From assembly GCA_903839535.1 (NCBI GenBank), contig CAIMCT010000101.1, positions 69 to 64,068 of the forward strand: a DNA stretch of 64,000 bases. Reading direction: 5' to 3'. The notes beneath the pieces were generated by a model. That model worked only from the letters and a program-made list of their open reading frames with translations. It did no database searches and was not told where the DNA came from. This DNA is from an uncultured Desulfobacteraceae bacterium (GTDB taxonomy: Bacteria; Desulfobacterota; Desulfobacteria; Desulfobacterales; Desulfatirhabdiaceae). Positions 1,100 through 54,773 of this stretch are shown in pieces; the first letter of the stretch is position 1, and each line of letters begins with the position of its first letter. The position numbers and the translations under genes are program-made.

Positions 1100-1109
1100 T
1101 ACATAACCT

Positions 1110-1736: not shown

Positions 1737-1739
1737 GGC

Positions 1740-7107: not shown

Positions 7108-7122
7108 GGGCTCCACCTCCGG

Positions 7123-33625: not shown

Positions 33626-33774
33626 CGCATAGGTCTATAAGTTTTGGCATCTTCAGTTCGGATATATGTCTAACCATTTGAAAAAAGGATATAATTTCAT
33701 TTTTTTGTTTTTTTAAACAAAAGTCTCAAATTCAATAGATTACGATAAAATGCCAACACTTGTGGACCTATGCG
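33626..33774 (+). mobile_element. Repeat family C, full copy C2 (149-bp MITE-like element)
   Basis: Terminal inverted repeats CGCATAGGTCTATAAGTTTTGGCAT / ATGCCAACACTTGTGGACCTATGCG. The interior is about 85 percent identical to C3 by eye. Confidence 0.85.
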
Positions 33775-33818
33775 AAATTTACATACAAGAAAATTACTTT
33801 AAAACGAAGGAGAGCTGC

Positions 33819-35885
33819 ATGAAATTGAAAAGATATTTTTTTATAATGACCTGTGCTTTTATGCTTTTAATATCAGGCACGGCAAATGCTCAGCCTCAAC
33901 CCCCGGTATTAAGCGTCACAAATGGGAGTTGGGTGTACATCTCATGGACCGAGGTTTCGGGCGCAGCGGGTTATATCCTTACATTAGCCCCAATGCCCTA
34001 TACGGGTCCGGCATCGCTCGTTAGCATTGATATGGGAACTCAAAGAAGCTTGTCGGGTGGTGAACTTCCAGCCGGCTCCGCCTTCTATGTGGCGGTTCAG
34101 TCCCTCGATAGTTCAGGAGTAAGCCAATACTCCAATGTCGTATCGGTTATCATGGGATCATACCCGATTGCTGCGGATGTTTTCACGACAGTTCAGAAAA
34201 CGGTTTCACCCGTGGCATTGTCTTTGAACACGCCTCAGATTTCCCCGGCGGATATTTCTCTGTACGATATTTTCGGTTACAGCGCGTGGCAGGAAGGACC
34301 CGGTCTCTCTTTGGTTAAAAGGACGGATATTATGCCAGCCGGCTACTCGGGTGCATCGGTCATAAATGCGAATCGCCTTTTGCGTTTATTTACAATAACA
34401 GACATTCATATCACAGATAAAGAATCTCCGGCTCAGGTGATTTACTACGGTTGGTCCGCACCGCTTGGCACGGACGGCACCCTTTATATTGGCGCTTATT
34501 CTCCGATTATTTCCTATACAACTCATTTCCTCGACGCTGCTATCCAGACGGTCAATGCCCTCCACAATCAGACTCCGTTTGATTTCGGCATCTCTCTTGG
34601 CGATAATTGCAACAACACACAGTATAACGAACTGAGATGGTTTATCGATGTCATGGATGGCAAAGAAATCACCCCCAGTTCAGGGGCTCATCTTGGAGCG
34701 AACACGATTGATTATCAGAAACCCTACAAAGCAGCCGGACTCAACAAATTAATTCCCTGGTATCAGGTTGTTGGCAACCACGATCAGTATCTTACGGGTC
34801 TTTTGCGTGAGAGCGATTACATTAGAAGTCTCCATGTCGGTGATACGATCTTCAACTACAGCCTTGATTTCGCGTCACCAAGTCCTTATAACAAAGGTTA
34901 TTATATGGGCGTGGTCGATGGAACGACACCCGACGGGAATATCAGAGGCGCAGGGCCGGAAGCGTATTTCGCGACACCACCAAAGGTAGTCGCAGATCCA
35001 GACCGCCATTCTCTTAGCACAATAAATGTCGTGGGCAAAAGTATAACGGGCTCCTCGACGTTGAATTGGATGAATGAATTTTTTACTACCACGTCAAGTC
35101 CGGTGGGTCACGGATTCATGCAGACCAACATCGAAAACGACTTTGCCTGCTATACCTTCGATCCAAAAGCTAATATGCCGATCCGGGTCATTGCGCTCGA
35201 TGATACTTGCAAGGCAAATGTCAATGCGGAATTCCCTTATGATGGTATGGGTTGTATCGACCAAGCCCGGTACGAATGGCTTGTAAGAGAGCTTCAGAGA
35301 GGTCAGGACGATGGCATGCTCATGATCATCGCCGCTCATATACCGATCGCACCTCAAACGAGCCTTACGAATCCGACACCCACACCGATGTTCTACGTTC
35401 CCCCCACCACCGACCCCTACGTTCCTCCAGTCCGCGACCCCCATTCCATTAAAACCGATAATGAATTACTTGCCACACTCCACAACTATCCGAACCTCAT
35501 CCTGTGGATCGCAGGGCATCGTCATTTAAACGTCATAACGGCACAACCGTCCCCCGATTCCGCCCATCCCGAATACGGTTTCTGGGAAGTCGAAACCGCA
35601 TCGCTCAGGGACTTTCCCAAGCAGTTTCGCACTTTCGATATCGTCCGTAACAATGACAATACCATTTCAATAATTGCAGTAGATGTTGATCCCGCAGTCA
35701 AGGACGGATCTCTCGCGGAGCGATCGCTTTCGTATGCAATCGGGATTGGCAGGATATCGGTTGGCCTCTCCAGCTTCGAAGACACTACATCCCAGGCCTA
35801 TAATGCGGAGCTTGTCAAACAATTAAGTCCAGCGATGCAAACAAAGATCGCAAATTACGGATCGCCGATGGCGACCACCCAATGA
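33819..35885 (+). CDS. Secreted protein: shared leader module fused to a calcineurin-like metallophosphoesterase
   Basis: AAGGAG RBS and ATG at 33819 (the track start 33750 lies inside element C2). Metallophosphoesterase motifs ITDIH, GDNCNNTQYNE, VVGNHD, AAHIP, GHRH. Confidence 0.8.
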   Translation: MKLKRYFFIMTCAFMLLISGTANAQPQPPVLSVTNGSWVYISWTEVSGAAGYILTLAPMPYTGPASLVSIDMGTQRSLSGGELPAGSAFYVAVQSLDSSGVSQYSNVVSVIMGSYPIAADVFTTVQKTVSPVALSLNTPQISPADISLYDIFGYSAWQEGPGLSLVKRTDIMPAGYSGASVINANRLLRLFTITDIHITDKESPAQVIYYGWSAPLGTDGTLYIGAYSPIISYTTHFLDAAIQTVNALHNQTPFDFGISLGDNCNNTQYNELRWFIDVMDGKEITPSSGAHLGANTIDYQKPYKAAGLNKLIPWYQVVGNHDQYLTGLLRESDYIRSLHVGDTIFNYSLDFASPSPYNKGYYMGVVDGTTPDGNIRGAGPEAYFATPPKVVADPDRHSLSTINVVGKSITGSSTLNWMNEFFTTTSSPVGHGFMQTNIENDFACYTFDPKANMPIRVIALDDTCKANVNAEFPYDGMGCIDQARYEWLVRELQRGQDDGMLMIIAAHIPIAPQTSLTNPTPTPMFYVPPTTDPYVPPVRDPHSIKTDNELLATLHNYPNLILWIAGHRHLNVITAQPSPDSAHPEYGFWEVETASLRDFPKQFRTFDIVRNNDNTISIIAVDVDPAVKDGSLAERSLSYAIGIGRISVGLSSFEDTTSQAYNAELVKQLSPAMQTKIANYGSPMATTQ

Positions 35886-35890
35886 GCAAC

Positions 35891-35962
35891 TATACTGCGA
35901 ACGGACATAATTTACATTTTTGAACCCCGACCCCGCCCCGACCCTCCTCCGCTGGGGGAGGT
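35891..35962 (-). mobile_element. Repeat family B, partial copy B3 (one arm plus core)
   Basis: TATACTGCGAACGGACATAATTTAC...CCCCGACCCCGCCCCGACCCTCCTCCGCTGGGGGAGG. No second arm. Confidence 0.65.
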
Positions 35963-36060
35963 AGTTTATTGAAGTTTTGATGGTGGATGCACAAGAATAA
36001 GCCTAAGAATAGTATCAATTCACCTGCGAATATCTATAACAAAAAACAAAGGAGAACAGT

Positions 36061-38118
36061 ATGAAATTGAAAAAACATTTTATTGTAATGGCCTGTGCTT
36101 TTATGCTTTTGATATCAGCTACAGCTTATGCTCAGCCTCAACCCCCGGTGTTAAGCGTCACGAATGGAAGCTGGGTGTACCTTTCCTGGAACGAAGTCAC
36201 GGGCGCAACGGGTTATACTCTGACTTTTGCACCAATGCCCTATACTGGTCCGGCATCCCTCGTTAGCGTGGATATGGGAACTAAAAGAAGCTTGTCGGGT
36301 GGTGAACTTCCAGCCGGCTCCGCCTTCTATGTGGCGGTTCAATCCCTTGATAGTTCAGGAGTAAGCCAATACTCCAATGTCGTATCGGTTATCATGGGGT
36401 CATACCCGATTGCGGCGGATGTTTTCACGACAGTCCAGAATACGGTTTCCCCAATTGCATTGTCTTTGATCACGACACAGATTTCTCCTGCGGATCTCAC
36501 ACTGTACGATGTCTTCGGTTACAGTGCGTGGCAGGAAGGTCCCAGCCTGTCTGTGATCAAGCGGACCGACATTATGCCAGCCGGCTACTCGGGCGCATCG
36601 GTCACAAATACGGGTCGCCTTTTGAATTTCTTCTCCATGACCGACATCCATATAGCAGATAAAGAATCTCCAGCTCAGGGGAACTACTACGGCTGGTCCG
36701 CTACGTTTGGTTCAGATGCGTCGGGCGGCAACCATTCTTCAGCGTATTCACCGGTAATTTGCTATACGACTCAGGTTCTTGACACCGCCGTCCAGACGGT
36801 CAACGCCATTCACAATCAGAGGCCGTTTGATTTCGGTATTTTTCTTGGCGATGCGGTCAACAACACTCAGTATAACGAACTCAGATGGTATATCAATGTT
36901 CTGGATGGCAAGGAAATCACCCCCAGCTCCGGCAGTCACATCGGATCAGGCAATATCGATTACCAGAAACCCTACAAGGCGGCCGGACTCAACAAATCGA
37001 TCCCGTGGTATCAGGTCGTTGGCAACCACGATCAATTTTATATGGGTACCTTCCTTGTGAACGATTACATCCGGAATCTCTATGTCGGCGATACTATCCA
37101 AAACGCAAGCAGCAATATGAACCTAACCCCAAGCCCCGATAATCACGGTTATTATATGGGCGTGGTTGACGGTTCGACACCCGACGGGATCATCAGAGGT
37201 GTAGGACCGGAAGCGTACTTCACGTCACCCCCGAAGGTGATCGCCGATCCGCTCCGCCATTCGCTTAGCACGACAAATGTCTCGGGCGCCAGTACGTCAG
37301 GCTCCTCGACCTTGAATTGGATGAATGAATTCTTCAATACCACTTCAACTCCGGTGGGCCACGGATTTACACAAACCAATATCGAGAGCGACTTCGCCTG
37401 CTATACCTTCGAGCCGAAGACAAATATGCCGATCCGGGTAATCGTACTTGATGACACATGCAAGGCTAGTGCCAGTGCAAGTCCTCCTTATTATGCAAGG
37501 GGTTGTATCGATCAGATACGTTACGACTGGCTTGTAAGTGAACTTGATAGAGGTCAGGCCGAAGATATGCTCATGATCATCGCAGCGCATATACCGATCG
37601 GAGTGCAAACAAATCTCACAAATCCGGTGATAGAAAATATATTCTACGTACCGCCCACGCCTGATCCCCATTCCATTAAAACTGATAGCCAATTACTCGC
37701 CACGCTCCACAACTATCCGAATCTCATGCTGTGGATTGCAGGACATCGTCACATGAACACCATTACGCCACAACCGTCATCCGATCCAGCCCATCCTGAA
37801 TCCGGCTTCTGGGAGGTCGAAACCGCTTCGCTCAGGGATTTTCCCCAGCAGTTCCGCCGCTTCGATATCGTCCGCAACAGCGACAATACCATTTCAATCG
37901 TTGCAATAGATGTAGATCCAGCAGCCAAGGAAGGGTCGCTTGCAGATATATCTCGTTCGAAAGCAATCGGGATTGCAAGAATATTGGTTGGCCTGTCCAC
38001 CTTCGGCGATACCACGTCTCATGCCTACAATGCGGAGCTTGTAAAACAATTGACCCCTGCGATGCAGGCCAAGATCGCAAACTACGGATCGCCGATGGCG
38101 GGGACCACGGGTGATTAA
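36061..38118 (+). CDS. Secreted protein: shared leader module fused to a metallophosphoesterase (paralogue of 33819..35885)
   Basis: Collinear with the preceding gene over the full length (MTDIH, GDAVNNTQYNE, VVGNHD, AAHIP, GHRH). Confidence 0.8.
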   Translation: MKLKKHFIVMACAFMLLISATAYAQPQPPVLSVTNGSWVYLSWNEVTGATGYTLTFAPMPYTGPASLVSVDMGTKRSLSGGELPAGSAFYVAVQSLDSSGVSQYSNVVSVIMGSYPIAADVFTTVQNTVSPIALSLITTQISPADLTLYDVFGYSAWQEGPSLSVIKRTDIMPAGYSGASVTNTGRLLNFFSMTDIHIADKESPAQGNYYGWSATFGSDASGGNHSSAYSPVICYTTQVLDTAVQTVNAIHNQRPFDFGIFLGDAVNNTQYNELRWYINVLDGKEITPSSGSHIGSGNIDYQKPYKAAGLNKSIPWYQVVGNHDQFYMGTFLVNDYIRNLYVGDTIQNASSNMNLTPSPDNHGYYMGVVDGSTPDGIIRGVGPEAYFTSPPKVIADPLRHSLSTTNVSGASTSGSSTLNWMNEFFNTTSTPVGHGFTQTNIESDFACYTFEPKTNMPIRVIVLDDTCKASASASPPYYARGCIDQIRYDWLVSELDRGQAEDMLMIIAAHIPIGVQTNLTNPVIENIFYVPPTPDPHSIKTDSQLLATLHNYPNLMLWIAGHRHMNTITPQPSSDPAHPESGFWEVETASLRDFPQQFRRFDIVRNSDNTISIVAIDVDPAAKEGSLADISRSKAIGIARILVGLSTFGDTTSHAYNAELVKQLTPAMQAKIANYGSPMAGTTGD

Positions 38119-38129
38119 GATTGAATAAG

Positions 38130-38152
38130 GCTCGTCCTTTCTGAGGACGAGC
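38130..38152 (+). terminator. Stem-loop terminator candidate between paralogues 3 and 4
   Basis: GCTCGTCC-TTTCTGA-GGACGAGC, 12 nt after the stop. Followed by TTGACATAATGAA, a possible promoter for the next gene. Confidence 0.45.
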
Positions 38153-38193
38153 AGTTGACATAATGAACCAACATCAAAACGAAGGAGAACAGT

Positions 38194-40113
38194 ATGAAAT
38201 TTAAAAGGTGCCTTTTTGTAATGGTCTGTGCTTTTATGCTTTTAATATCAGGCACAGCTTATGCTCAGCCTCAACCCCCGGTGTTAAGCGTTACAAAGGG
38301 AAGTTGGTGGGTGTATCTTTCCTGGACAGAAGTTGTAGGAGCAACGGGTTATACCCTGTCTTACGCCCCAATGCCCTATACTGATCCGGCATCCATCGTG
38401 GCCGTGGATATGGGAACTCTAAGAAGCTTGTCTGTGGAACTTCCGGCTGGTGTCGCCTTCTATGCGGCAGTCCAGTTCCGCGATAGTACCGGCTTAAGCC
38501 AATACTCCAACATTGTATCGGTTATCGGAGGCTCATATCCCACCGACATAATTGCGCGCGCCGCTAAATTGCCGGCGAAAGACATGTCGCAGAGTCTGCT
38601 CTACGACAACCTGCTGGAATGGGAAAAAGCAGTGGTGGCCAAGATGGTGCAGGCAGCGGCCTACATGGATGCCGCATATTGGCGGCAAGTAGATCCGGAA
38701 GGTGAAAAGTTGTGGCGCAGCCTTGCTTGGGCAAGTACATCGCTTGAAAAAGCGGTTTACACGATGCTTGATGCCAACTACGGAAGGTGGGACAGGTTTC
38801 TGAATTTTGCATCCTTTGTCGGCGCAATTGAACGTCCTCCCGGAGGGTATGTCTATCCTGCTGATCTTACCAAAAGCGAGTTGGATGCCTACATCGCGGC
38901 CCATCCAATGGAAAAGGATGCTCTGCTAAACCCGTTCACCGTGGTGCGGCGCAGTGGCGAAAAACTGGTGACGATACCGTATCACCAAGAGTACGCAGAG
39001 TTTGTGGACCCCACCGCCTTGCTGCTGTTCGAGGCTGCGGAGCTTTCCCAAAATCCGACCTTGACCAAATACCTGCGTCTGCAAGCCCAGGCGCTGCGCA
39101 GCGACAATTACTACGAAGCCAACATTGCCTGGCTTGATCTGAACTGCAACATAGATGTCAGCATCGGACCGCATGAAATATATGACGACCAGCTTACCGG
39201 GCAGAAAGCGTTTTACAAGACCAATGTGTTGCTTGTGGATCAGTCAGCCGCAGCGCAGCTCGCAAAATACAAGTCAACCGGTCCGGCTCTGCAGGAAAAT
39301 CTGCCGGTTGACCCCAAATACAAACCTGTTTACAAGGCGGACACCATGATGCCGCTGCTCCTGGCGGATGACATACGCCGCTCCGGCCAGGGACGCGCCA
39401 TCATGGAACCGGTAGCCTTCAGTCTGCCCAACGACCCCAAGGTCTGGGCTGCCAAAGGCTCAAAAAAGGTGATGATGGGTAATTATCTGACCACCCGGCG
39501 CACTGTAGTGCTTGAACCCTTGGCGAAGGTCATCCTGGACCAGTCCGTGACCGCCATGATAGATCATGAAGCCTATTTCACCTGGGTGCTGATGCATGAG
39601 GTCTGTCATACCCTTGGGCCCAGAGAAGTCGTGAAAGGCGGTCAAACTGTGACACCAAGAGAGGCGCTGGGAGAATATTACTCTCCCATCGAAGAAGGCA
39701 AAGCCGATATCGGTGGCCTTTACAACATTCCCTATCTTATCAGCCATGGGCTTATCACTGCTCCACTTGAATGGCACTACGCCGGATTCATGGCGGAATC
39801 GCTCCGTTCGATCCGTTTCGGAATGGGTTCTCCTTATGGTGTCATACGTTCCGCCGCCTGGAACATATTTCTGGATAAGGGGGCTCTGGTGTACAACCCC
39901 GTCAGCAACCGCTTTAACATGGATGTACCCAAGATGACCGCTGCGATCCGTGAATTGCTGATCACCCTGATCACTATAGAAGGGGATGGGGACACTACTG
40001 CTGCAGCCAACCTTATCAATACATATTCCAACATTCGGCCCGAACTGAAGAAACTACTTGATGCGGCCGAAAATTCAGTGCCGCTGGAGTTCGTGCCAGT
40101 GTATGCGAAGTAG
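38194..40113 (+). CDS. Secreted protein: shared leader module fused to a DPP III (M49)-like zinc hydrolase domain
   Basis: Same signal peptide and FN3-like module. Then HEVCHTLGP (HExxH) and EEGKADIGG (EExKAD), as in the dipeptidyl-peptidase III / Nudix-associated family. Confidence 0.7.
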   Translation: MKFKRCLFVMVCAFMLLISGTAYAQPQPPVLSVTKGSWWVYLSWTEVVGATGYTLSYAPMPYTDPASIVAVDMGTLRSLSVELPAGVAFYAAVQFRDSTGLSQYSNIVSVIGGSYPTDIIARAAKLPAKDMSQSLLYDNLLEWEKAVVAKMVQAAAYMDAAYWRQVDPEGEKLWRSLAWASTSLEKAVYTMLDANYGRWDRFLNFASFVGAIERPPGGYVYPADLTKSELDAYIAAHPMEKDALLNPFTVVRRSGEKLVTIPYHQEYAEFVDPTALLLFEAAELSQNPTLTKYLRLQAQALRSDNYYEANIAWLDLNCNIDVSIGPHEIYDDQLTGQKAFYKTNVLLVDQSAAAQLAKYKSTGPALQENLPVDPKYKPVYKADTMMPLLLADDIRRSGQGRAIMEPVAFSLPNDPKVWAAKGSKKVMMGNYLTTRRTVVLEPLAKVILDQSVTAMIDHEAYFTWVLMHEVCHTLGPREVVKGGQTVTPREALGEYYSPIEEGKADIGGLYNIPYLISHGLITAPLEWHYAGFMAESLRSIRFGMGSPYGVIRSAAWNIFLDKGALVYNPVSNRFNMDVPKMTAAIRELLITLITIEGDGDTTAAANLINTYSNIRPELKKLLDAAENSVPLEFVPVYAK

Positions 40114-40661: not shown

Positions 40662-42236
40662 TCACTGGTGCAGTATCATAATATCATCCGTGATGGTAAA
40701 GAGCTGTTCCAGACGGGTCAATTGCAGCAGCTTTAGCACTCCGTCCGTGGGTGCGCAGAGGATGCAGCTCTTGCCGTGTGCTATTACGGCCCGCTGAATT
40801 TTGACGAACAGCACCAGTCCGGAGCTATCAACAAAATTGAGTGCATGCAGATCCAGTAAGCAGTTGTGACCCGAAACCGCTACGCAAATTGCAGTTATAT
40901 CGAAGTTTTTGAGGCTAAGAGCGTCCAGCCGTCCCTCTATCGTGACAATGGCGGTACCATCTTTTTTGTATGTAACGGAGGATGGAAGTTCCTTCCCCGC
41001 AATTTTGGCTTGGTGCAAATCCATCGAATTCAGATATTGCTTCGCCAGTTGAAGATCGCGGAAACTATTATCTCCTATAAGATCGTCCAGTCTGCTTAGA
41101 GCAAATGTTCGGCGTATATCGTCATTCATACCGGCCATCAACAGCACTTTATTCAGATTCAATGCAGTGCGCCACATCTCAACAATAAACCCAAGCCCCA
41201 TGGAATCTATAAAAACCACCTGAGTGAAATCAAGGATCAGGGCATGTTCACTCTGCCAGATAGTTTCAATAGTGCTGCTCAGATTTCGCACTCCGAGGGC
41301 ATCAAGCCGCTCCGGAAGCGTCATCGATAATTTATCCACTTCAGAAGAAAGTAGCTGTTCAGGCTTTGTCGGTTCCACCTGCATTTTGGGGGCCCTCCAC
41401 GTTGGCTGATAGCAAGTAATAAGCCTTCGCTGTCGGTGATAATCCATAACTGCCGGCCAGAGTTGCAGACCAAAGGTCATGATTGCTCGCAAATAGCGCC
41501 GCCAAAGCCGTATCGGTTCGACCGCCAGTCGCCAAAGCCACTCCAGTCCGATCCGCTGTATTGCCAGCGGTGCGCGACTGATATCACCGGCAATGAAGGA
41601 AAAGGTTCCACCGATGCCAATGGAAAGCGGAACCTTCAGACGGGTGACGTTTCGTCTGAACCAGAGTTCCTGCTTGGGATTGCCGAAAGCAATTAAAAGG
41701 ATATCCGGTGCTGCGGCATTCACATCCGCCACGATAGCCGCGTCCTCTTCCTCATAAAATTCAAGATGTTCCCCTTCTGTATAGACTATTGGAGACAAAA
41801 CGCCGGCAATCTTCAGGCCTGGGTTGCGCTTCAGCAAGATATTGGCTGCTCGTTCTGCGGAATTGGTCTGCCCACCCAGAAAGTAGAGCGAAAGCCCCTC
41901 TCTCGCCGCCCGTGTTGCCAGAGCAGGAACCATATCGGCCCCTGTTACACGTTCCGGCAGAGGGTTTCGCAGCATCCTGGACAGCCAGACAATTGGCATT
42001 CCATCCGCTGTTACCAGATCAGCACGCCGCAGGATATCCAGCAGCTCGGCATGGCGAATCTCGCTTAATCGTTTGCCCATGGTTTGTACTATGAAATCCA
42101 CATTAACGGTTGCTACCAGCTTCGGTATTCCATCCCGGCGTGACTCCGCCACCAGGTCGACAATTTTATCCATCGCCTGGGATAAAGTCAGGCTATCGAT
42201 CGGCACCCCCAGGATTATGACACTGTCTCTTTGCAT
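40662..42236 (-). CDS. WecB/TagA/CpsF-family glycosyltransferase fused to two C-terminal STAS domains
   Basis: ILGVPID, ADLVTADGMPIVW, FLGGQ, FGNPKQELW and GLEWLWRLAVEPIRLWRRYL are TagA/WecG hallmarks. Then LDFTQVVFIDSMGLGFIVEMWR and LDLHALNFVDSSGLVLFVKIQR, which are STAS cores. Confidence 0.85.
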   Translation of the reverse strand: MQRDSVIILGVPIDSLTLSQAMDKIVDLVAESRRDGIPKLVATVNVDFIVQTMGKRLSEIRHAELLDILRRADLVTADGMPIVWLSRMLRNPLPERVTGADMVPALATRAAREGLSLYFLGGQTNSAERAANILLKRNPGLKIAGVLSPIVYTEGEHLEFYEEEDAAIVADVNAAAPDILLIAFGNPKQELWFRRNVTRLKVPLSIGIGGTFSFIAGDISRAPLAIQRIGLEWLWRLAVEPIRLWRRYLRAIMTFGLQLWPAVMDYHRQRRLITCYQPTWRAPKMQVEPTKPEQLLSSEVDKLSMTLPERLDALGVRNLSSTIETIWQSEHALILDFTQVVFIDSMGLGFIVEMWRTALNLNKVLLMAGMNDDIRRTFALSRLDDLIGDNSFRDLQLAKQYLNSMDLHQAKIAGKELPSSVTYKKDGTAIVTIEGRLDALSLKNFDITAICVAVSGHNCLLDLHALNFVDSSGLVLFVKIQRAVIAHGKSCILCAPTDGVLKLLQLTRLEQLFTITDDIMILHQ

Positions 42237-42284: not shown

Positions 42285-43274
42285 TCAGCTCCGTCGATTC
42301 ATCACCGGTCCTATCAGCGGCGACAGCAAATAACGCACAACTCCAAAAAACTGGGGATAGACAATAAATGAGGCATGCACGGCATAGACCAGAGCTACAC
42401 TGAAACTTGCGCTACAGCGCTTCATGGTGGCAGGAATGCGGGCAAGCGGTTTCAGAATCAATGCGAGCGCCAAGAGCAGAGCGATTGTAAACTGGTTGAG
42501 GATCACGCCAAGCAGGATCAGCAGCAGCGGCAGACAGGCTGTAACACAAATTCTCAGAAGTTCACGCAACCAGAGTTTTTCCGGTGAATGCAGATAGCGC
42601 AAACCCACCTCGGCGTAGGCATGTCCACTGCGGAAGGCGCGTTTCCAGTATTGCATAAATCTCGTCATGTTCAGGTCATGCAGCGTCATGTCGGCTGCAA
42701 TACGCAAGATGATCCACCCCTGCTGACGCAGGCGGCAGCTCAGGTCTGGTTCTTCTCCGGCCACCAGCAGTTCATCAAATCCACCGGATGTGGCCAGCGG
42801 TTCCCGTCTTGCCAGAAAATCCCCCCCGAAATAGCGGCAAGGTCCCTGCTCGTAGAACCACTCCACCGATGCGATTCGGTGATACTGATTCAAATCGGGG
42901 CGACGCTCGCTACGCTTGCCGCAGACCGCCACAATTTTTTTGTCAAAATGGGCAAGAGCAGTTTTCAGCCAGTCGCGGTGTATAAGCGTGTCGGCATCAA
43001 GGAACTGGATGAAGGGCGCTGTCGCCTCAAAAATACCGGCGTTACGCCCTCTGCCGGGGGTCGGCGAAGGGTGGTCGAGTTGTATCACGCGAATACCAGC
43101 ATGATTACCGATTGTAACGCTGCGATCTGTTGAGCCGCCATCGACATAGATGATGTTCAGCAATTCTTGCGGATAATCGGCATCACGAATTGAGGTTATG
43201 CAGTCATACAAGTAGCGCTCGACATTGATACCGATGATAACAACGTCAATGGGTGGTAATGGATCAGGGAACAT
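42285..43274 (-). CDS. Family 2 glycosyltransferase with C-terminal membrane segments
   Basis: IDVVIIGINVERYLYDCITSI...VDGGSTDRS...LDADT. ATG at 43274 is preceded by AGGAAAG. Confidence 0.8.
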   Translation of the reverse strand: MFPDPLPPIDVVIIGINVERYLYDCITSIRDADYPQELLNIIYVDGGSTDRSVTIGNHAGIRVIQLDHPSPTPGRGRNAGIFEATAPFIQFLDADTLIHRDWLKTALAHFDKKIVAVCGKRSERRPDLNQYHRIASVEWFYEQGPCRYFGGDFLARREPLATSGGFDELLVAGEEPDLSCRLRQQGWIILRIAADMTLHDLNMTRFMQYWKRAFRSGHAYAEVGLRYLHSPEKLWLRELLRICVTACLPLLLILLGVILNQFTIALLLALALILKPLARIPATMKRCSASFSVALVYAVHASFIVYPQFFGVVRYLLSPLIGPVMNRRS

Positions 43275-43327
43275 AGCCGCTTTCCTGTGATGTGGCGGTT
43301 TTGTGGGCTGGAGAGCTACCCCCACGT

Positions 43328-44935
43328 TTATTTCGGAAATACCTTGGCCGGAATTCCGACGGCGATATGGTTATCCGGCACGTTGATCATCACCACCGAA
43401 TTAGCTCCGATATCCACATTGTCGCCAATGGTGATATTTCCCAATACCTTGGCGCCGGCTCCGATGTTGACGTTATTACCGATCTGCGGAGCGCATGGCT
43501 CGTCAATTCGTTTAAGTCCGACGGTGACACCGTTTCGGATAATGCAGTTGTCACCAAAGCTGGCGAAACCGCTGACTATGATGTCACCAAAATGGTCGAT
43601 GCGAAAACCCCTGCCCACCGGTGCCTCGCAGGGAAGCTCTATGCCGGTCAGTATCTGAACTATCTTGTAAAAAAACTTGTAGAGCAGGGAAAACGGCTTC
43701 CTGCCCAGCCCGTTATTGATGGTATAGCGCCAGCGGCCAAAACGGTAGATCAGCATTACCCATAACCCCTGCCGCCCCCAGTCGCCGAAATAGGTGCGCA
43801 GATCCCGTTTGATGTTGGTCATCAGGTGCCGGTCTTCATTGATAATCCGGTTTTGTGGGGCCTCGCGGGGCAGCCCTGTGGTTGATGTATCTACCGGTGC
43901 ATCCAGAGGGGAAGCATTTTCCTGCGGTGGTGCAGGCATTCCTTCTCCGGCCAGCTCTTTTCCGTATCCGTCATTTTTTAGTGTCGCCATGATCAGCTCC
44001 ATTGTTAGGGCGGCATCCGCACTCTTGATATGTGCCTGCTCGTCCCTCTTGAACGAATTTTTTAGCCTGATAACACCTTTCCAGAACAGCTCCACCCCTG
44101 CAGCGCGCAGCACAGCACACAGACCGTAATTGGAGCGATAGTAGCGCAATTCGCTCTGTATTCGCAGATATGTCAATTGCCGTCCCGCCTTGGTTACCTT
44201 GCCGGTGGATTCGGAACTCTGTCCCCCCAGGTGGATACATCTGGTATGTGGGTAGAAGACCACAGGCCAGCCGGCCTTTGCAGAAAGGCGACAGAACTCA
44301 ATCTCTTCAAAATAGAGAAAATAGCGTTTTTCGTTCAGAAGGCCGATGGTCTCAATCACCTCGCGCCGCACCAGGAAATATGCCCCCGGCACCCAGCCAA
44401 CCACTTTTTCGGTGGAGTGATCCCACCAACTGTAGTCCGGCCCACCAAGAAGGGGAGAATTGGGGAACTTGTCGGCGATTCCGGAAATGACCAGAAATTT
44501 GGTCCATGGGGATGGGAGCATCCGCGCCGACGGCTGCAGCTTGTCGTCCAGCCCTACCAGCTTGACACCAAGTATGCCCCACGTCGGGTTTTCCTGCATA
44601 GCCTTGATCGTGGTGGACAGGGTGTCCGGGAAAAGATAGGCATCGGAATTGAGTAGCAGCAGAAACCGTCCGCTCGCCGCGCGGATACCTACATTGTTGC
44701 CACCTGCGAACCCCAGGTTTTTTTCAGTCCGGATCAGCTTCACCAGTGACCCATATATCTCTTGTTCGGTCGCCACCATATCTGCTGAATTGTCACTGGA
44801 GGCGTTATCGACGACGATCACCTCCATGTCGAGCTTCGCACCGTACTCCATAACCCGCTTCAAACATTCGCGGGTGATGTCGCGGGTGTTGAAACTGACG
44901 ATAATTACGGAGAGGAGTTTATCAGCCGCTTTCAT
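43328..44935 (-). CDS. Family 2 glycosyltransferase fused to a hexapeptide-repeat (CysE-like) acetyltransferase
   Basis: N-terminus LSVIIVSFNTRDITRECL...VDNASSDNS. C-terminus LWVMLIYRFGRWRY...GIELPCEAPVGRGFRIDHFGDIIVS...IGNNVNIGAGAKVLGNITIGDNVDIGANSVV. Confidence 0.8.
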   Translation of the reverse strand: MKAADKLLSVIIVSFNTRDITRECLKRVMEYGAKLDMEVIVVDNASSDNSADMVATEQEIYGSLVKLIRTEKNLGFAGGNNVGIRAASGRFLLLLNSDAYLFPDTLSTTIKAMQENPTWGILGVKLVGLDDKLQPSARMLPSPWTKFLVISGIADKFPNSPLLGGPDYSWWDHSTEKVVGWVPGAYFLVRREVIETIGLLNEKRYFLYFEEIEFCRLSAKAGWPVVFYPHTRCIHLGGQSSESTGKVTKAGRQLTYLRIQSELRYYRSNYGLCAVLRAAGVELFWKGVIRLKNSFKRDEQAHIKSADAALTMELIMATLKNDGYGKELAGEGMPAPPQENASPLDAPVDTSTTGLPREAPQNRIINEDRHLMTNIKRDLRTYFGDWGRQGLWVMLIYRFGRWRYTINNGLGRKPFSLLYKFFYKIVQILTGIELPCEAPVGRGFRIDHFGDIIVSGFASFGDNCIIRNGVTVGLKRIDEPCAPQIGNNVNIGAGAKVLGNITIGDNVDIGANSVVMINVPDNHIAVGIPAKVFPK

Positions 44936-45849
44936 GGGTAGAGCCCCACTGGCGGCGCTGGTATCCGCTCCAGCCGGTTGCTTATCTTGAGCTTTTCAAA
45001 CTGCCAGGCGTGAAGCGAATCTCTGAAGCCAGGCTCTTCGTAGCGCTGCATCCCTTCCTGCATAGCCTTGAAATAACCGCATATAATGCCAAGGCCGCCA
45101 ATGATAAATGGTTCTTCCGCCATGCGATAGACTCCCATCGGTATAATGTAGAGTGGGTGTGTACCCATGAAATATTGACCCCGACCCCATCTCATACGTC
45201 CGTGCCAAATTCCCAGGTGCGATGAACCCATCAGCCTTTTGTGAATTATGTTCAGCTTTGGGTTACGAATGCTGCGAGTCCGCCATCCCTTTATGCGGGC
45301 TTTATGATAGGCGATGCCATCCCAATGAACCTGACGCACAAAACCGCCAATATCCTCAAAACATTTGCGGCGATAGAAATTGACCATGCCGGCCACCATT
45401 TCATCGCTTGTGCGCTCTTCCACCAGAGCTGATTTCACCTCGATAAAGTGCTTGCCGCTGCCGGAGCCGAGCTGCCTGTCCTTCTCGAAATACTCCACCA
45501 GAGTGGAGAAGTAGTCCGGCCCGATCTCAATGTCACCATCCATTTTGCAGATGTAATCGTACTCTCTGGTTATAATCTGATTATAACCAAAATAATACGC
45601 TTCCACAACCCCAGGCCCCACGGCCCGCACCCCACGATTCCGCCGCTTGACCACACGAATCCAGGGATGTTCCTGCGATGCCCGCTCAGCGATTGCAAAA
45701 GTGTCGTCCTTCGAACCATCATCCACCAGTATCCATTCCACCGGTTTCAGTTTCTGCGCAATGATGGCATCGATGGTTCCTTGAAGATATTTCGCTTCAT
45801 CCCGCACTGGGGCTACGATGACAATGCGACGTTTATCAGTTCCACTCAA
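44932..45849 (-). CDS. Family 2 glycosyltransferase
   Basis: IVIVAPVRDEAKYLQGTIDAIIAQ...LVDDGSKDDT. 4-nt overlap with the downstream gene. Confidence 0.8.
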   Translation of the reverse strand: MSGTDKRRIVIVAPVRDEAKYLQGTIDAIIAQKLKPVEWILVDDGSKDDTFAIAERASQEHPWIRVVKRRNRGVRAVGPGVVEAYYFGYNQIITREYDYICKMDGDIEIGPDYFSTLVEYFEKDRQLGSGSGKHFIEVKSALVEERTSDEMVAGMVNFYRRKCFEDIGGFVRQVHWDGIAYHKARIKGWRTRSIRNPKLNIIHKRLMGSSHLGIWHGRMRWGRGQYFMGTHPLYIIPMGVYRMAEEPFIIGGLGIICGYFKAMQEGMQRYEEPGFRDSLHAWQFEKLKISNRLERIPAPPVGLYP

Positions 45850-45896
45850 ATTATATCCTCCATAAATGATGCTTTTTTATTGTAAAAGGGGGTAAT

Positions 45897-47123
45897 TTAC
45901 CCCATGTTTGTAAATAACTCTGCAAGCCGGTCGATGTTCAGCTTCTGTGAAAACTCACCGTCAGTCATTGTCCGGCCGCCGGATATACAGCGTCGCCGAA
46001 GCTGAGCATCATCCAGCATCCGCTCGATACTTGCAGCAAGAGCAACCACATCGCCCGGTTCTACCAGTAGTCCGGATACACCATCTTGTATCAGCTCATG
46101 AATTGCGGAGATAGTGGTTGAAATGACCGGCACATCCGCCGCCATCGCTTCCATTAATACTACTGGAATGCCGTCCATATCTCCATTTTTATCTTGTTTG
46201 CAGGCCAGAACGAACAAGTCAATCCGGGATAACCACTCCGGCACCTTGTTATTGGCGATCGGACCGTAAAATTTGACCATTCCGCCAAGACCTTCACGCT
46301 CGGAACACGCATGGAGTTCTTCCAGCAATGGGCCGGACCCGGCTATTTCCAGGGTGAATTCCCTTCCCTGACGTGCAAGCATTCCGGCCGCCAGAAGCAG
46401 GGTGTCAAAGCCTTTTTTTTCCACCAGACGACCCAGGGAACCAATTCGTGGAACAGTATAACACTCTCTTTTTTCGCAGTGGAGCCGGCATCCTGCCGGC
46501 TCTACACCACAGCGAATTATACTTATCTTGGCGGAGTTAGCTCCATTATGCTCCAGAAAAAGCTGGTTAAAGTGCGAAATGGTAACAGCGGCCAGCGACC
46601 GTTCGACCTTTTCCCTGAGCAACCAGCCTCGCTCGAAAAGATCGTTGGCGTGCGATGTGAAGCTAAAGCCGATTCCCGCCAACCTGGCTGCATACATTGC
46701 GATATCGGTCGGGACATGAGCAAAATGGGCGTGCAAATGGATGCAGTTATTTTTATTTATTATGCGAGCCAATCGTGCAGCAGCAAGGAAACGATACGAA
46801 AGACCGGCGGTGCTTCGAGTAAATAAGCCAACGCTGGAGATGTCTGCAATCAATAGCCGTAAAGCCGATGCAGTACGGCCAGGATACGAAAAGGCGATTG
46901 TCAAAAGCGCCGCCAGAAATGACGGCATGCCGAGCGCATACAGATGAATGGTCTCCTTTTCCATATCCAATGCTTCCTGTTCAAGGGCGGCAGCAGTTGG
47001 AACCAACACCGATACCGGCAGTATATGAAAGCCGCGTTTTCGCAAAGCCAAAATTTCATGGTAAACAAAAGTGGCGGAAAGAGCAGGAATTTCCGGTGCC
47101 AGATAGACAATAGCTGGCTTCAT
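45897..47123 (-). CDS. Family 4 (GT-B) glycosyltransferase
   Basis: C-terminal EGFDTLL...GDMDGIPVVLMEAMAADVPVISTTISAIHELIQDGVSGLLV is the GT4 E-x7-E region. Confidence 0.8.
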   Translation of the reverse strand: MKPAIVYLAPEIPALSATFVYHEILALRKRGFHILPVSVLVPTAAALEQEALDMEKETIHLYALGMPSFLAALLTIAFSYPGRTASALRLLIADISSVGLFTRSTAGLSYRFLAAARLARIINKNNCIHLHAHFAHVPTDIAMYAARLAGIGFSFTSHANDLFERGWLLREKVERSLAAVTISHFNQLFLEHNGANSAKISIIRCGVEPAGCRLHCEKRECYTVPRIGSLGRLVEKKGFDTLLLAAGMLARQGREFTLEIAGSGPLLEELHACSEREGLGGMVKFYGPIANNKVPEWLSRIDLFVLACKQDKNGDMDGIPVVLMEAMAADVPVISTTISAIHELIQDGVSGLLVEPGDVVALAASIERMLDDAQLRRRCISGGRTMTDGEFSQKLNIDRLAELFTNMG

Positions 47124-48292
47124 GAATCCACCCTTGCTGCATCGGCGATTATTTCCAGATAGCGTGCAACAAAGGCCCCGGAGGAAAAGCAGCGCTCATA
47201 CACGGAGCGTTGGCGGACCTGTAATGCACCCAGTTTCTTGCGATCACTTAATATCGGTGCGATCCTTGTGGCAATCTGCTCCGGTGTTGCATCCTGTGGT
47301 ATTACCGCTTCCGGCATATCAGGGAGAATCTCTTGCAGAGCCTCATATTCAAGCGCCATCACCGGAATATTGCAGGCCATCGCCTCTACCAGCGTCATTC
47401 CGAAACTTTCCTCCAGCGAAGTGTGCAGGTACAGATCAGATTCAGCCATCAGATTGAAGACGGCATCGCGTTCCTGCTCACCAAAGAAGGCGAAAAGGTC
47501 GTCCACATGCAGCTTGGCAGCCAGCTCTTGGACTCGTATCTTTTCCTCTGCCTGCTCGGTGCCAACCAGCAGAAAACGACAGGTGATTCCCATCTCTTTC
47601 AATGCTGCGGCCACCAATGGCAACATTCGCTGATTCTTGCGACGCTCCAGCGTGCCGACATTGATGATTGTTGGAACCAAACCGGAACGCGGCTCTACCG
47701 TCAAGGTGGTTACAGGTCTATATACCCCTGAATAAGCGATTTTGATCCTGTTTTGCGACGCATCGGGCGCAATTGTGAGCAGCAGCTTTTCATTACGGTG
47801 CGAAACCGGCACGAGCATGATCCGGGGATCGTTGAGTACATGTTCCATCCTGCGGCGCAACCACCCGATAGCAGCACCGTGCTTTGGCAAAAGTCCTGTG
47901 TCGGAAAATTCATCCCATGGTTTTGTCCAGAAATGACAAACCAGCAGTATCGGGCAATGTCCGCCAACAGCAGATAGCGCGGCTCCGGCAGTGAGTACGT
48001 CGTGAGCGATCACTGCATCAATATCCCCGGAGTGGGACGCAATGCGTTCACCAAGGTGTTTTACAGTCAAGTGGAGTCTTGTCAGGAAACAGACAGGGGA
48101 CTTTGTGGCTCGCCACATCCGGCGGGCGATTCGAAGCATCAGACTACGGTCAGGCGTGGCGGCATTGTTAGGTGTCACAGTTCGCACTGAGTGTCCGGCG
48201 GCTTCAAGGAGACATTTCAAATCGTGGGCCACGCTGACCACCCCGTTTCTGTCATGTTCCATATCAAGCATTGTCGTCATCAGAATGTTCAT
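47120..48292 (-). CDS. Family 4 (GT-B) glycosyltransferase
   Basis: ESFGMTLVEAMACNIPVMALEYEALQEILPD motif. 4-nt overlaps on both sides. Confidence 0.8.
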   Translation of the reverse strand: MNILMTTMLDMEHDRNGVVSVAHDLKCLLEAAGHSVRTVTPNNAATPDRSLMLRIARRMWRATKSPVCFLTRLHLTVKHLGERIASHSGDIDAVIAHDVLTAGAALSAVGGHCPILLVCHFWTKPWDEFSDTGLLPKHGAAIGWLRRRMEHVLNDPRIMLVPVSHRNEKLLLTIAPDASQNRIKIAYSGVYRPVTTLTVEPRSGLVPTIINVGTLERRKNQRMLPLVAAALKEMGITCRFLLVGTEQAEEKIRVQELAAKLHVDDLFAFFGEQERDAVFNLMAESDLYLHTSLEESFGMTLVEAMACNIPVMALEYEALQEILPDMPEAVIPQDATPEQIATRIAPILSDRKKLGALQVRQRSVYERCFSSGAFVARYLEIIADAARVDS

Positions 48293-49158
48293 GAGTTTGT
48301 ATTTCTCCGGCTGTGGTTATCCGGCCTTACCATCATTGTTTTTTTAGTAAAAGCCCCATCGAACGTAACAGAGACATCATCGTTCAAAAGCACGCCACTG
48401 GCGGTTTTACCTTGACCGTACAGACCCCAATGCGCCTCGCACAAGCTGACACCTTCGGCTCCCCAGCTTTTTTTCGCCTCCGCCACCAGACGTTCATCCT
48501 GAAACAGCATGATTCCGGAGTCATCGACCTTTACCGTAATACTAACCCACTTTTTCATGGGAAATGGAACCGAGGCAAACCGGGTAAAGTCCCCCTTGCC
48601 AAATACCGGTACATGGAACAGCACCAGTCGATCTACGCCATCTTCATGGCCAAGATTGACACCGTACAAGTCTTTCCAGTTCATCATGTTGGAATATGTG
48701 GCAAAACTGATCCAGCCCCGTGTGGCGGAATGCTGCGGTAGATCCGCCCACACGCTGAATGTTGATGAATACGTTCCACGATAGCATTCAGGCAGCATGA
48801 ACACGGGATAAAGTCGATGGCTGTCGCCCGGAGGAGGCGATGCGGAGGTGATTTCTCCCCTCAGAACAAAGCCACGTCCCGATCCGGTCGGGTCTGGCAC
48901 GACGGTGAGTGTGCCGCTGGACGTACCTTCCATGCGCCACCAACTGTACTCTTCCATATTTCCGGTTTCGTGCTTAGCCTGCCAGAACGGGGTGACGGCC
49001 TGAGCGGCAGGGTCGGCAGCGACTGGGATTCTCATATACGGCTCTTCAGCATGCCGGGCGTAAAAATCTTGCAGCATGTCGCCAACGGTATAAACGCCGA
49101 CAGCCATAAGGAGCAGCAATAGAAGAAATTTGAGAATTAATTTAGGGGTTATCTGCAA
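48289..49158 (-). CDS. Membrane-anchored hypothetical protein (possibly concanavalin-like / polysaccharide-lyase-like fold)
   Basis: N-terminal hydrophobic anchor KLILKFLLLLLLMAVGVYTV. The remainder is beta-rich. Start uncertain: TTG at 49158 with an AAGGA RBS, TTG at 49200, or ATG at 49107. The fold suggestion is weak. Confidence 0.5.
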   Translation of the reverse strand: MQITPKLILKFLLLLLLMAVGVYTVGDMLQDFYARHAEEPYMRIPVAADPAAQAVTPFWQAKHETGNMEEYSWWRMEGTSSGTLTVVPDPTGSGRGFVLRGEITSASPPPGDSHRLYPVFMLPECYRGTYSSTFSVWADLPQHSATRGWISFATYSNMMNWKDLYGVNLGHEDGVDRLVLFHVPVFGKGDFTRFASVPFPMKKWVSITVKVDDSGIMLFQDERLVAEAKKSWGAEGVSLCEAHWGLYGQGKTASGVLLNDDVSVTFDGAFTKKTMMVRPDNHSRRNTNS

Positions 49159-49377
49159 GATTATCCTTCGCTGAGTTGCCGATAATACTGATACAATCAA
49201 GATAACCCTCCCTGTCTATTACAGTGCACTTTCGATGTCAATCATTTTGCTCCCTCCACAAAATCATGCTGTATTTTTATTACGCTGAGATCACGTTTCC
49301 AGTCCGACCATCTATCATTCATTGACGAAGGATGCAGTGCAAAGTAGCATGCGGACTTTTTATGAAGTCGTTAAATT

Positions 49378-49421
49378 CTTGACTTCGTCACAAATAAGTG
49401 TACACTTTAAATATACACTTA
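49378..49421 (+). promoter_or_regulatory. Promoter plus palindromic operator of the antitoxin/vapC cassette
   Basis: TTGACT (49378-49383), a 17-nt spacer, then TACACT (49401-49406). Perfect palindrome AAGTGTACACTT (49396-49407) and inverted repeat ATAAGTGTA / TACACTTAT (49394-49402 / 49413-49421). Confidence 0.5.
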
Positions 49422-49441
49422 TGCGGCATGGAGGTTTTAAT

Positions 49442-50494: not shown

Positions 50495-50537
50495 GGGGAT
50501 ATCTGCAGTCAAAGCCTTATGGAGAGGGGCAGCCCGT

Positions 50538-54757: not shown

Positions 54758-54773
54758 ACCAGGAGAGTCCGAC

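Follow-up and report, generated by a model that had tools for sequence, protein, structure and literature searches.

A family GT26 glycosyltransferase carrying two STAS domains as a candidate target of partner switching in an exopolysaccharide locus

The output of exopolysaccharides (EPS) and biofilms is usually explained by transcription or by cyclic di-GMP. Direct phospho-control of an enzyme of lipid-linked polysaccharide assembly has been shown for one cyanobacterial enzyme (PMC13555669), All4160 from Anabaena sp. PCC 7120, in which a STAS domain is joined to a Bac_transf domain (Harada, Matsuoka & Ehira, Mol Microbiol, June 2026). Its Ser74 is phosphorylated by the kinase Alr3423, the enzyme is reactivated by the REC-SpoIIE phosphatase HenR, and the S74A allele bypasses the loss of henR; All2285 and Synechocystis XssP are counted with this system. 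The same study calls STAS-Bac_transf proteins rare outside cyanobacteria and the strategy lineage-specific, and in a 2021 review of STAS domains all4160 is the sole named multidomain example outside the SulP proteins. Here, we describe a gene in which a TagA/WecG-type glycosyltransferase (GT) of family GT26 is followed by two STAS domains (below, the fusion). It lies in an EPS locus of an uncultured Desulfobacteraceae bacterium, within a stretch of 64,000 nucleotides (contig CAIMCT010000101.1 of assembly GCA_903839535.1, positions 69 to 64,068), which is referred to as the window.

Two further groups of described proteins are relevant to this gene. TagA is inactive as a soluble dimer and active as a membrane-bound monomer; on activation, the C-terminal appendage folds against the active site and contributes Arg221 to it (Kattke et al., PMC6493773). 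In Vibrio fischeri, biofilm formation is promoted by unphosphorylated SypA, a free-standing STAS protein (PMC8256260). As far as sequence and genomic context reach, they support a post-translational switch acting on an early enzyme of glycan assembly in the locus studied here, and the comparison with related loci strengthens this reading.

Domains and conserved residues of the fusion protein

The fusion gene (coordinates of this and other features are collected in Table 1) starts with ATG and is preceded by a GGGAG Shine-Dalgarno sequence 9 nt upstream. Three Pfam domain families are identified in its product, the best stretches being 72-248 for Glyco_tran_WecG, 305-384 for STAS_2 and 422-518 for STAS. 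Both STAS models (PF01740, 82 bits; PF13466, 65 bits) exceed the gathering cutoff, and each of them matches both the 305-384 and the 422-518 stretch. The NCBIfam superfamilies wecG_tagA_cpsF (TIGR00696, 136 bits with a cutoff of 69) and ant_ant_sig (TIGR00377, 78.8 bits with a cutoff of 53.45) are above their cutoffs as well, and the E-values of the domains are far beyond chance. Thus, the layout given in a preliminary description of this DNA, with a TagA/WecG-type GT in the N-terminal part and two STAS-like repeats at approximately 40665-41340 (residues ~300-524), is borne out: the GT is identified by the PF03808 match and by the mapping of TagA residues, the residues ~300-524 contain two significant STAS matches in both Pfam and NCBIfam, and the boundary agrees with the Pfam stretches. 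All sequence motifs named there are also in place, namely the GT hallmarks ADLVTADGMPIVW at residue 72, FGNPKQELW at 184 and GLEWLWRL at 230, and the STAS cores VFIDSMGLG at residue 341 and NFVDSSGLV at 467.

The AlphaFold2 model of the fusion, built from the family alignment, has a mean predicted local distance difference test score (pLDDT) of 85.2 and a predicted template modelling score (pTM) of 0.80. Only two stretches, 280-298 and 410-418, are disordered in it (pLDDT <50). A scan for promoters and terminators around the fusion gene yielded counts at the chance level and was uninformative.

In the GT half, the match with PF03808 (E-value 3.2e-58) covers profile positions 1-168 of 168, and residues 6-255 align with TagA from T. 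italicus (7mpk, E-value 2e-40, phmmer against PDB). In this alignment T43 corresponds to Thr37 and D78 to Asp65, the proposed catalytic base, while R236, R243 and R246 of the appendage correspond to Arg214, Arg221 and Arg224, respectively. In an alignment of 50 family members, no variation occurs at T43, D78 and R236, and at least 90% of sequences keep R243; the pairwise identity of the GT core is 69%, and equivalents of T43 and D78 are kept in nearly all 67 genomic loci described below. Structural comparison of the model by Foldseek is consistent with these results, as it retrieves TagA/TarA structures (7n41, 7mpk, 5wfg, 5wb4) with target template modelling (TM) scores 0.89-0.92 and E-values about 1e-16. 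The GT half hence looks catalytically competent. Still, the protein scores well below the equivalog cutoffs of EpsA (153 bits, cutoff 500), TarA (102, cutoff 350) and WecG (85, cutoff 323), and therefore it should be treated as a member of the superfamily only, with no orthology to a GT of known sugar specificity. The helices of the appendage are predicted at residues 232-239 and 241-276, and it is to the end of the latter helix that the STAS tandem is attached, through a flexible linker of approximately 20 residues.

The two STAS repeats carry the sequence features of phosphorylated regulators. The first repeat aligns with SpoIIAA (1th8), 'fiDSmG' corresponding to 'fmDSsG', and the second one with TM1442 (1sbo, E-value 6e-9), 'fvDSsG' corresponding to 'ymDSaG' (phmmer against PDB), which places S345 (codon 41202-41204) and S471 (codon 40824-40826) at the position of SpoIIAA Ser58. 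In the model a helix begins at each serine (345-360 and 471-485, respectively; DSSP), as in SpoIIAA. Among 121 sequences (120 listed homologues and the query), S345 is kept in 119 and S471 in all 121, and the family alignment shows no variation at D344, D470 and G473. The DSxG serines are thus nearly invariant, even though the pairwise identity of the STAS domains is only ~40-45%. The structural matches of the repeats are RsbV (6m36), TM1442 (1vc1) and SpoIIAA (1th8, 1til, 1h4y), with target TM-scores 0.65-0.84; the top ones are RsbV in complex with RsbW, TM1442 and SpoIIAA (Foldseek). Taken together, the alignment, the position in the helix and the conservation confirm the earlier proposal that both repeats keep the phospho-acceptor serine of SpoIIAA/RsbV.

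Spread and gene neighbourhoods of the fusion

The search against 5.8 billion proteins yielded 1279 matches, and the homologue counts given here are drawn from the 120 listed ones. All 120 contain PF03808, PF01740 and PF13466, have length 504-550 aa and identity 41-96%, and cover 98-100% of the query; their sources include Desulfobacter vibrioformis, Desulfoluna spongiiphila, Desulfococcaceae, Thermodesulfobacteriota metagenome-assembled genomes (MAGs) and a Nitrospira MAG. The scan of genomes, one per species, identified 67 loci, 59 of them with a STAS-bearing fusion. These loci come from Desulfobacteraceae MAGs of lakes (68-77% identity), Geobacteraceae (~51%), many Gammaproteobacteria, among them Thiohalomonas, Contendobacter, Pseudomaricurvus alkylphenolicus and Halieaceae (with the cultured Congregibacter variabilis and C. 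brevis represented by complete genomes), and, further, Victivallales/Lentisphaeria, Phycisphaerales and Chlamydiales/Parachlamydiaceae. A fragment with 98% identity is found in the MAG 'Deltaproteobacteria bacterium ELA676', which probably belongs to the same species as the window. The search with the STAS tail alone against 1.84 billion cluster representatives gave 1698 matches; approximately 40 of the top 150 are proteins of ~480-620 aa (plus one of 696 aa) with the tail at residues ~300-510, and they represent distinct 50%-identity clusters of the fusion. The family therefore spans at least five phyla, with Desulfobacterota, Nitrospira, Gammaproteobacteria and phyla of the Planctomycetes-Verrucomicrobia-Chlamydiae (PVC) group among them, and the question of how widespread the architecture is, raised in the preliminary description, is answered by at least 120 full-length homologues and 59 STAS-bearing loci. 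Some members are labelled 'WecB/TagA/CpsF family protein/anti-anti-sigma factor' by JGI, that is, the architecture is visible in databases while being unstudied.

Several other architectures were observed in these searches. P0140, the 696-aa metagenomic representative, has the WecG-STAS-STAS structure with an extra C-terminal NUDIX domain. P0123, P0144, P0175 and P0206 are tandem-STAS proteins of 233-243 aa with complete-looking N-termini, which may be unfused counterparts of the fusion tail; in P0175 and P0206 the first repeat has D-T and the second D-S, and these two seem to be true stand-alone proteins belonging to a different subfamily. P0124, also considered as a stand-alone tandem, was rejected, being a shortened gene call that starts inside the GT appendage.

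The preservation of the motifs differs between lineages. In the delta clade, DSxG is present in both repeats. In the gammaproteobacterial clade where the fusion is accompanied by PP2C and kinase genes, STAS2 always has DS(T/A)GL, while the STAS1 motif has decayed to IDSNAL, IDAAAL, LDPYAL or IDFNAL. In Halieaceae, the STAS1 motif is gone and STAS2 reads LES(S/T)(A/G)I, and the STAS2 serine is lost in Victivallales (MDGAGT) and Chlamydiales (IDNLGI). The members without the motif still keep the STAS tandem and all catalytic residues.

The strongest functional evidence is the comparative context. Neighbours were sought with single-sequence phmmer searches and small home-made hidden Markov models of the kinase and PP2C, which found few of them, and the counts did not change with Jackhmmer. 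The fusion gene is followed, in five gammaproteobacterial loci (L014, L017, L018, L019, L021), by a REC-SpoIIE gene after a gap of 0-50 bp and then by a HATPase_c_2 kinase gene, this order being confirmed with Pfam for L019. No free STAS gene was found near the fusion in these loci (in L019, over the full 10 kb on each side), the only other STAS match being a STAS-Bac_transf protein in L017. Hence, the fused STAS domains are the only available substrates of the kinase and phosphatase there. The L017 protein (L017:10343-11338, minus strand, Gammaproteobacteria MAG BB34; Pfam) is a priming transferase of the All4160 type and is encoded 4 kb from the WecG-STAS-STAS gene with its REC-PP2C and kinase genes, so that the first two lipid-linked steps are both STAS-tagged in one non-cyanobacterial locus.

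Partner-switching genes accompany the fusion in other lineages as well. The order in a Phycisphaerales locus is kinase, STAS, a 4-bp gap and the fusion, with a REC-PAS-SpoIIE-HATPase_c_2 gene next door. In Chlamydiales/Parachlamydiales MAGs, the whole module is a single REC-SpoIIE-HATPase_c_2-STAS polypeptide of ~695 aa encoded 0.6-2.2 kb from the WecG gene (L030 and L061 in Table 1); the STAS domains of the L030 WecG protein have no serine, and the L061 WecG protein has no STAS at all. Closer to the window, Desulfobacter vibrioformis has the series hybrid histidine kinase, Hpt, REC-SpoIIE, kinase, STAS, Bac_transf, fusion, NTP_transferase-LbH-Bac_transf, Wzx, followed further on by Wza and the polysaccharide co-polymerase (PCP). 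The 5.6-Mb genome with P0079 has REC-SpoIIE, STAS, kinase, ManC, Bac_transf and the fusion, and the contig with P0013 has histidine kinase, Hpt, Bac_transf and the fusion. In most loci examined from the window's clade a small Bac_transf gene lies just ahead of the fusion, its stop codon overlapping the start codon of the fusion or adjoining it without a gap. The two genes are thus translationally coupled there, and the arrangement supports the assignment of the fusion to the step right after priming. In Halieaceae, the fusion gene adjoins a gene of ~1000-aa Wza, and no partner-switching gene was detected within 10 kb; this absence is probably real, but the models behind it are of limited sensitivity.

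The DSxG motif of STAS2 is retained wherever kinase and PP2C genes adjoin the fusion. When only loci flanked by at least 5 kb in both directions are counted, 8 of the 10 with the STAS2 motif have a partner-switching gene within 10 kb, versus 2 of the 32 without it (Fisher test, p = 1.5e-5). As this test ignores kinship and Halieaceae are essentially one clade, the co-occurrence is suggestive only.

In the window itself, a REC-PP2C phosphatase, a free STAS protein and an RsbW/SpoIIAB-type kinase are encoded in one operon with wza, wzc and wzy of the same locus, and Pfam matches place all three genes where the preliminary description had them. The top PDB match of the kinase is RsbW (6m36_A), and its N-box and G2 box are intact. 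The phosphatase, truncated here, is 418 aa long (REC and SpoIIE) on contigs with an identical kinase, where it is also the first gene of the operon. The free STAS protein aligns with SpoIIAA/RsbV and with both fused repeats; its identity to each repeat is 30-31%, about the same as the similarity between the repeats. Pfam found no Sigma70-family match among the scanned open reading frames (ORFs) of the window with a length of 100 aa or more, in agreement with the earlier suggestion that no sigma factor is involved. The fusion is thus not an anti-anti-sigma factor functionally: it has the same domain, but on an enzyme.

Proposed mode of control and its alternatives

Given these data, we consider it probable that the kinase and phosphatase of the locus act on the fused STAS domains and that these gate the GT26 enzyme. 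The enzyme would add the second sugar to the lipid-diphosphate-linked primer of a Wzx/Wzy-dependent EPS, and its two C-terminal STAS domains would serve as on-board receivers of the partner-switching module. A phosphorelay from a sensor histidine kinase via Hpt would activate the REC-PP2C phosphatase, which would remove phosphate from the free STAS protein and from the enzyme-borne domains, above all from S471 of STAS2. The dephosphorylated free STAS protein could then act as a competing partner and sequester the kinase, leaving the enzyme unphosphorylated and active, while in the absence of the signal the kinase would phosphorylate and/or clamp the STAS domains of the enzyme and turn it off. 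In this way, the phosphorylation status of the STAS domains would gate the second step of repeat-unit assembly. Coupling to catalysis would probably proceed via the TagA-type C-terminal appendage, which must dock both on the membrane and on the active site. With regard to the individual repeats, we infer from the pattern of conservation that S471 of STAS2 is the primary phospho-acceptor, that in the window's clade STAS1 serves either as an additional site or for docking, and that the tandem also has a phosphorylation-independent role, persisting in lineages without the motif.

Several observations weigh against this scheme. The kinase and phosphatase genes of the window are about 20 kb from the fusion, in another operon, and the free STAS protein could be the only substrate of the kinase. 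No partner-switching gene is present within 10 kb of the fusion in three of the seven sampled close-clade contigs. The alteration or loss of the motif in Halieaceae, Victivallales and Chlamydiales means that the function of the tandem is not always phosphorylation-dependent. The window has no priming transferase: Pfam identifies neither Bac_transf nor WecA in the window, and tblastn searches of it with two Bac_transf proteins and one NTP_transferase-Bac_transf protein of relatives yielded no priming transferase, so the acceptor-forming enzyme must be encoded elsewhere. The weakest links are the coupling through the appendage and the polarity, both of which we purely infer; that the phosphorylated form would be the inactive one is suggested solely by analogy with Anabaena All4160.

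An alternative that keeps the partner-switching genes but detaches them from the enzyme, and that we regard as unlikely, is that the STAS tandem is a constitutive docking or oligomerisation module independent of phosphorylation, similar to that of MlaB or SLC26, the kinase and phosphatase acting on the free STAS protein only. The tandem could tether the soluble or peripheral GT26 enzyme to another part of the assembly apparatus, for instance the Bac_transf primer enzyme, NTP_transferase-LbH, Wzx or PCP, or it could set the monomer or dimer state, and such roles would be in line with the tight and conserved order of Bac_transf, fusion and NTP_transferase genes and with the dimer/monomer toggling of TagA (PMC6493773). 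The NCBIfam MlaB model also matches, below its cutoff, and many members have lost Asp-Ser of STAS1 and have altered the STAS2 motif or lost its serine, yet retain the tandem and the catalytic residues. However, next to no variation is seen in the two DSxG motifs within the window's clade, though the surrounding STAS sequence is only ~40% identical; the closest structural matches in Foldseek are kinase-bound RsbV and SpoIIAA rather than MlaB; and in operons consisting of the fusion, REC-PP2C and kinase genes with no other STAS, the fused domains are the only plausible substrate. The same operons, lacking a free STAS protein and hence a switching partner, argue against purely stoichiometric partner switching, where the enzyme would take the place of the sigma factor, the kinase, as an 'anti-glycosyltransferase' factor, would inhibit it by binding and not by phosphorylation, and the dephosphorylated free STAS protein would compete the kinase away. 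We deem this quite unlikely, the invariance of the serines in the window's clade also arguing for their use, although the locus has the complete PP2C-STAS-kinase trio with no sigma factor in the scanned ORFs, and the free STAS protein, being about as similar to STAS1 and STAS2 as these are to each other, could share one kinase surface with them. It would also explain the Chlamydiales GT with serine-less STAS domains encoded beside a REC-PP2C-kinase-STAS polypeptide, and S-to-A variants of STAS domains do bind kinases more tightly (PMC13555669). Stoichiometric switching overlaps with the phosphorylation-dependent gating described above, and both could operate together.

The probability that the gene is an artefact, that is, a frameshift or mis-assembly joining a WecG gene with a tandem-STAS gene, or a decaying pseudogene, is negligible. 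Its presumed parts do exist separately, as stand-alone tandem-STAS proteins of ~230-240 aa in metagenomes and as WecG genes without STAS in some relatives (L058, L061, L062), but proteins of the same length and 96% identity are encoded on independent contigs from JGI and ENA, the three domains are shared by all 120 listed homologues, and the 59 STAS-bearing fusions among the 67 loci include those of cultured Congregibacter, whose genomes are complete. Conservation extends to the catalytic and STAS motifs, and the structural model is confident. The same full-length architecture in independent contigs and genomes excludes an assembly join or frameshift, and with it the doubt about continuity of the ORF that had been expressed in the preliminary description.

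If the enzyme-borne STAS domains are indeed the targets, a broader reading becomes possible, which we put forward tentatively. Gating by STAS domains at both initial lipid-linked steps (those of the Bac_transf primer enzyme and of GT26) might be a general, cross-phylum start/stop control of EPS synthesis, with the GT as the switched partner of a circuit without a sigma factor. STAS2 would then be the phospho-acceptor, STAS1 would provide a second input, dock the kinase or act as a pseudo-substrate, and orphan free STAS proteins such as SypA might bind early GTs.

The exopolysaccharide locus and comparison with known systems

The EPS locus of the window consists of the GT operon, which ends with the fusion, a group of plus-strand genes and the export operon (Table 1). 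The gene order of the latter (REC-SpoIIE, STAS, kinase, Wza, PCP, Wzy, GT4, acetyltransferase) is the same on independent contigs.

Table 1. Features of the fusion gene, of the EPS locus of the window and of two related loci (positions are those of the window unless a locus is named)
Feature	Position	Strand	Evidence
GT26-STAS-STAS fusion gene, 524 aa	40662..42236	minus	uninterrupted ORF; stop codon 40662-40664
Residues 1-276: GT26/GT-E core (1-229) and C-terminal appendage helices (230-276)	41409..42236	minus	PF03808, TagA alignment, Foldseek
Residues 277-299: linker between appendage and STAS1, predicted disordered	41340..41408	minus	low pLDDT, pairwise identity 0.10
Residues 300-392: STAS repeat 1, putative phospho-acceptor S345	41061..41339	minus	STAS_2 match, SpoIIAA alignment
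Residues 393-420: inter-STAS helix (395-413) and short disordered linker	40977..41060	minus	AlphaFold2 secondary structure
Residues 421-524: STAS repeat 2, putative phospho-acceptor S471	40665..40976	minus	STAS match, TM1442 alignment
GT operon: 303-aa unknown, GT4, GT4, GT2, GT2-hexapeptide, GT2, then fusion as last gene	42285..49200	minus	Pfam
GH5-like protein	50436-53150	plus	Pfam
Wzx flippase	53231-54757	plus	Pfam
GT2	54666-55694	plus	Pfam
Hexapeptide acyltransferase	55691-56272	minus	Pfam
GT4 of export operon	56354-57403	minus	Pfam
Wzy	57375-58730	minus	Pfam
PCP/Wzc-like	58737-60920	minus	Pfam
Wza	60910-61935	minus	Pfam
RsbW/SpoIIAB-type Ser kinase, 137 aa, candidate kinase for STAS domains	61932..62345	minus	HATPase_c_2, E 2.7e-18
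Free single-domain STAS protein, 113 aa, FIDSSG	62515..62856	minus	STAS, E 1.7e-19
REC-SpoIIE (PP2C) phosphatase, first gene of export operon, N-terminus cut by window end	62869..64000	minus	SpoIIE, E 1.7e-40; partial Response_reg
One-polypeptide partner-switching module	L030:5663-7753		
One-polypeptide partner-switching module	L061:7214-9298		

The GT operon is syntenic with L075:1409-11515, whose fusion protein (P0006) has 72% identity. Compared to L075, the GT operon of the window lacks the Wzx-Hpt-Bac_transf segment immediately upstream of the fusion and the NTP_transferase-like and Metallophos genes after it. With the priming transferase missing and these segments absent, the EPS locus of the window looks rearranged. 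The first gene of the GT operon (48289..49200, minus strand) has no Pfam match, and neither does its 283-aa counterpart in L075. Between the divergent halves of the EPS locus, there is a pair of genes for a Phd/YefM-like antitoxin and a PIN toxin (49322..50073, plus strand); a PIN gene is also found within L076, a related locus of Geobacteraceae-like type. Three large genes convergent to the fusion gene (33750..40113, plus strand) encode two paralogous ~700-aa proteins with weak Metallophos matches and a 639-aa M49-peptidase-like protein. As Metallophos genes follow the fusion cassette in L075, L076 and L077, a functional link with the Metallophos-like genes of the window is possible.

A hybrid histidine kinase without an Hpt domain (27630..30905, plus strand; MASE7-PAS-PAS-HisKA-HATPase-REC-REC) is a possible upstream sensor for the REC-PP2C phosphatase. 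We do not claim it as the cognate one, since its 41% match to the D. vibrioformis histidine kinase spans the generic kinase core only. The adjoining gene of an ATP-binding cassette ATPase (26310..27398, plus strand) has a weak C-terminal HATPase_c_2 match (E-value 1.5e-4).

Other genes of the window include a formate-dehydrogenase-type molybdopterin oxidoreductase alpha subunit (7123..10170, minus strand), apparently split into 9592..10170, with a TAT (twin-arginine translocation) signal and an Fe4S4 domain, and 7123..9543. What separates the two is an in-frame TGA (9592-9594) in the context 'EHQARI-TGA-HSATVAALAESFGRG', which would be the classic selenocysteine site of FdhA. The alpha subunit is followed by a Fer4_11 beta subunit (6382..7116) and an FdhE-like gene (5276..6124). 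A further cluster (68..4865, minus strand) is comprised of Fic/DOC (68..1201), DUF3780 (1110..1736) and a 1041-aa DUF499 protein (1740..4865), and may be related to defence or mobile elements.

Full-text literature searches found nothing relevant on STAS domains fused to a GT26 enzyme of the WecG/TagA/CpsF type. Hence, the statement of the preliminary description that no characterised example is known stands for the exact architecture of GT26 with tandem STAS, but not for the principle, as All4160 provides a precedent (PMC13555669). With this precedent of 2026 and the fusion being common in databases, the novelty is below that initially assumed. The family suggests that the same logic was built independently onto the second-step GT26 transferase. 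Its members are widespread, occurring in sulfate reducers, in Geobacteraceae and Nitrospira, in marine Gammaproteobacteria and in the PVC group. Cultured hosts are available (Desulfobacter vibrioformis, Desulfoluna spongiiphila, Congregibacter, Pseudomaricurvus), and the family offers a defined, testable output of partner switching other than a sigma factor. Moreover, it presents a natural series of variants, with both serines, the STAS2 serine only or neither, for dissecting each STAS repeat, as well as a possible handle on the switching of TagA-type enzymes through the C-terminal appendage. If the proposed gating is true, the fusion could serve as a 'Rosetta stone' and guide the search for what free STAS regulators act on, SypA among them, with a target that has stayed elusive for more than ten years.

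The closest described counterpart is All4160. In both cases STAS is covalently attached to an early enzyme of polysaccharide assembly, genes for an RsbW-type kinase and a REC-SpoIIE phosphatase are present, the architecture of HenR being that of the window phosphatase, and no sigma factor is found. The output of the Anabaena system is the activity of the enzyme itself, controlled via the conserved serine, and the same is proposed for the fusion. All4160 is a Bac_transf phosphoglycosyl transferase of the first step with a single N-terminal STAS domain, while the fusion is a GT26 enzyme of the second step with a C-terminal STAS tandem. Proteins of the All4160 type are described by the authors of that study as essentially cyanobacterial, unlike the WecG-STAS-STAS proteins of Desulfobacterota, Nitrospira, Gammaproteobacteria and PVC phyla, and the Anabaena genes are dispersed, while those of the window lie within one EPS locus.

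The GT half resembles TagA, TarA and WecG, in particular TagA of T. italicus (5WB4, 5WFG, 7MPK, 7N41), in its fold (TM-score ~0.9), the Thr/Asp pair with three Arg residues and the hydrophobic basic appendage. It differs in that the sequence identity is 32-35%, the appendage is followed by approximately 250 extra residues forming two STAS domains, and the gene belongs to a Wzx/Wzy EPS locus of the Gram-negative type, not to the synthesis of wall teichoic acid or enterobacterial common antigen. The regulatory part is comprised of the same three protein families as SpoIIAA/SpoIIAB/SpoIIE and RsbV/RsbW/RsbU of B. subtilis, with the DSxG serine at the N-terminus of helix alpha2; unlike in those systems, there is no sigma factor output, and two of the three STAS units of the locus reside on the enzyme. 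The linkage of a partner-switching module with EPS production without a dedicated sigma factor is shared with SypA/SypE of the V. fischeri syp locus and with BgrU/BgrV/BgrW, which control the mixed-linkage glucan of S. meliloti. In those two systems the STAS proteins are free-standing (the target of Bgr being a diguanylate cyclase route), whereas the fusion names its likely direct target, an early GT.

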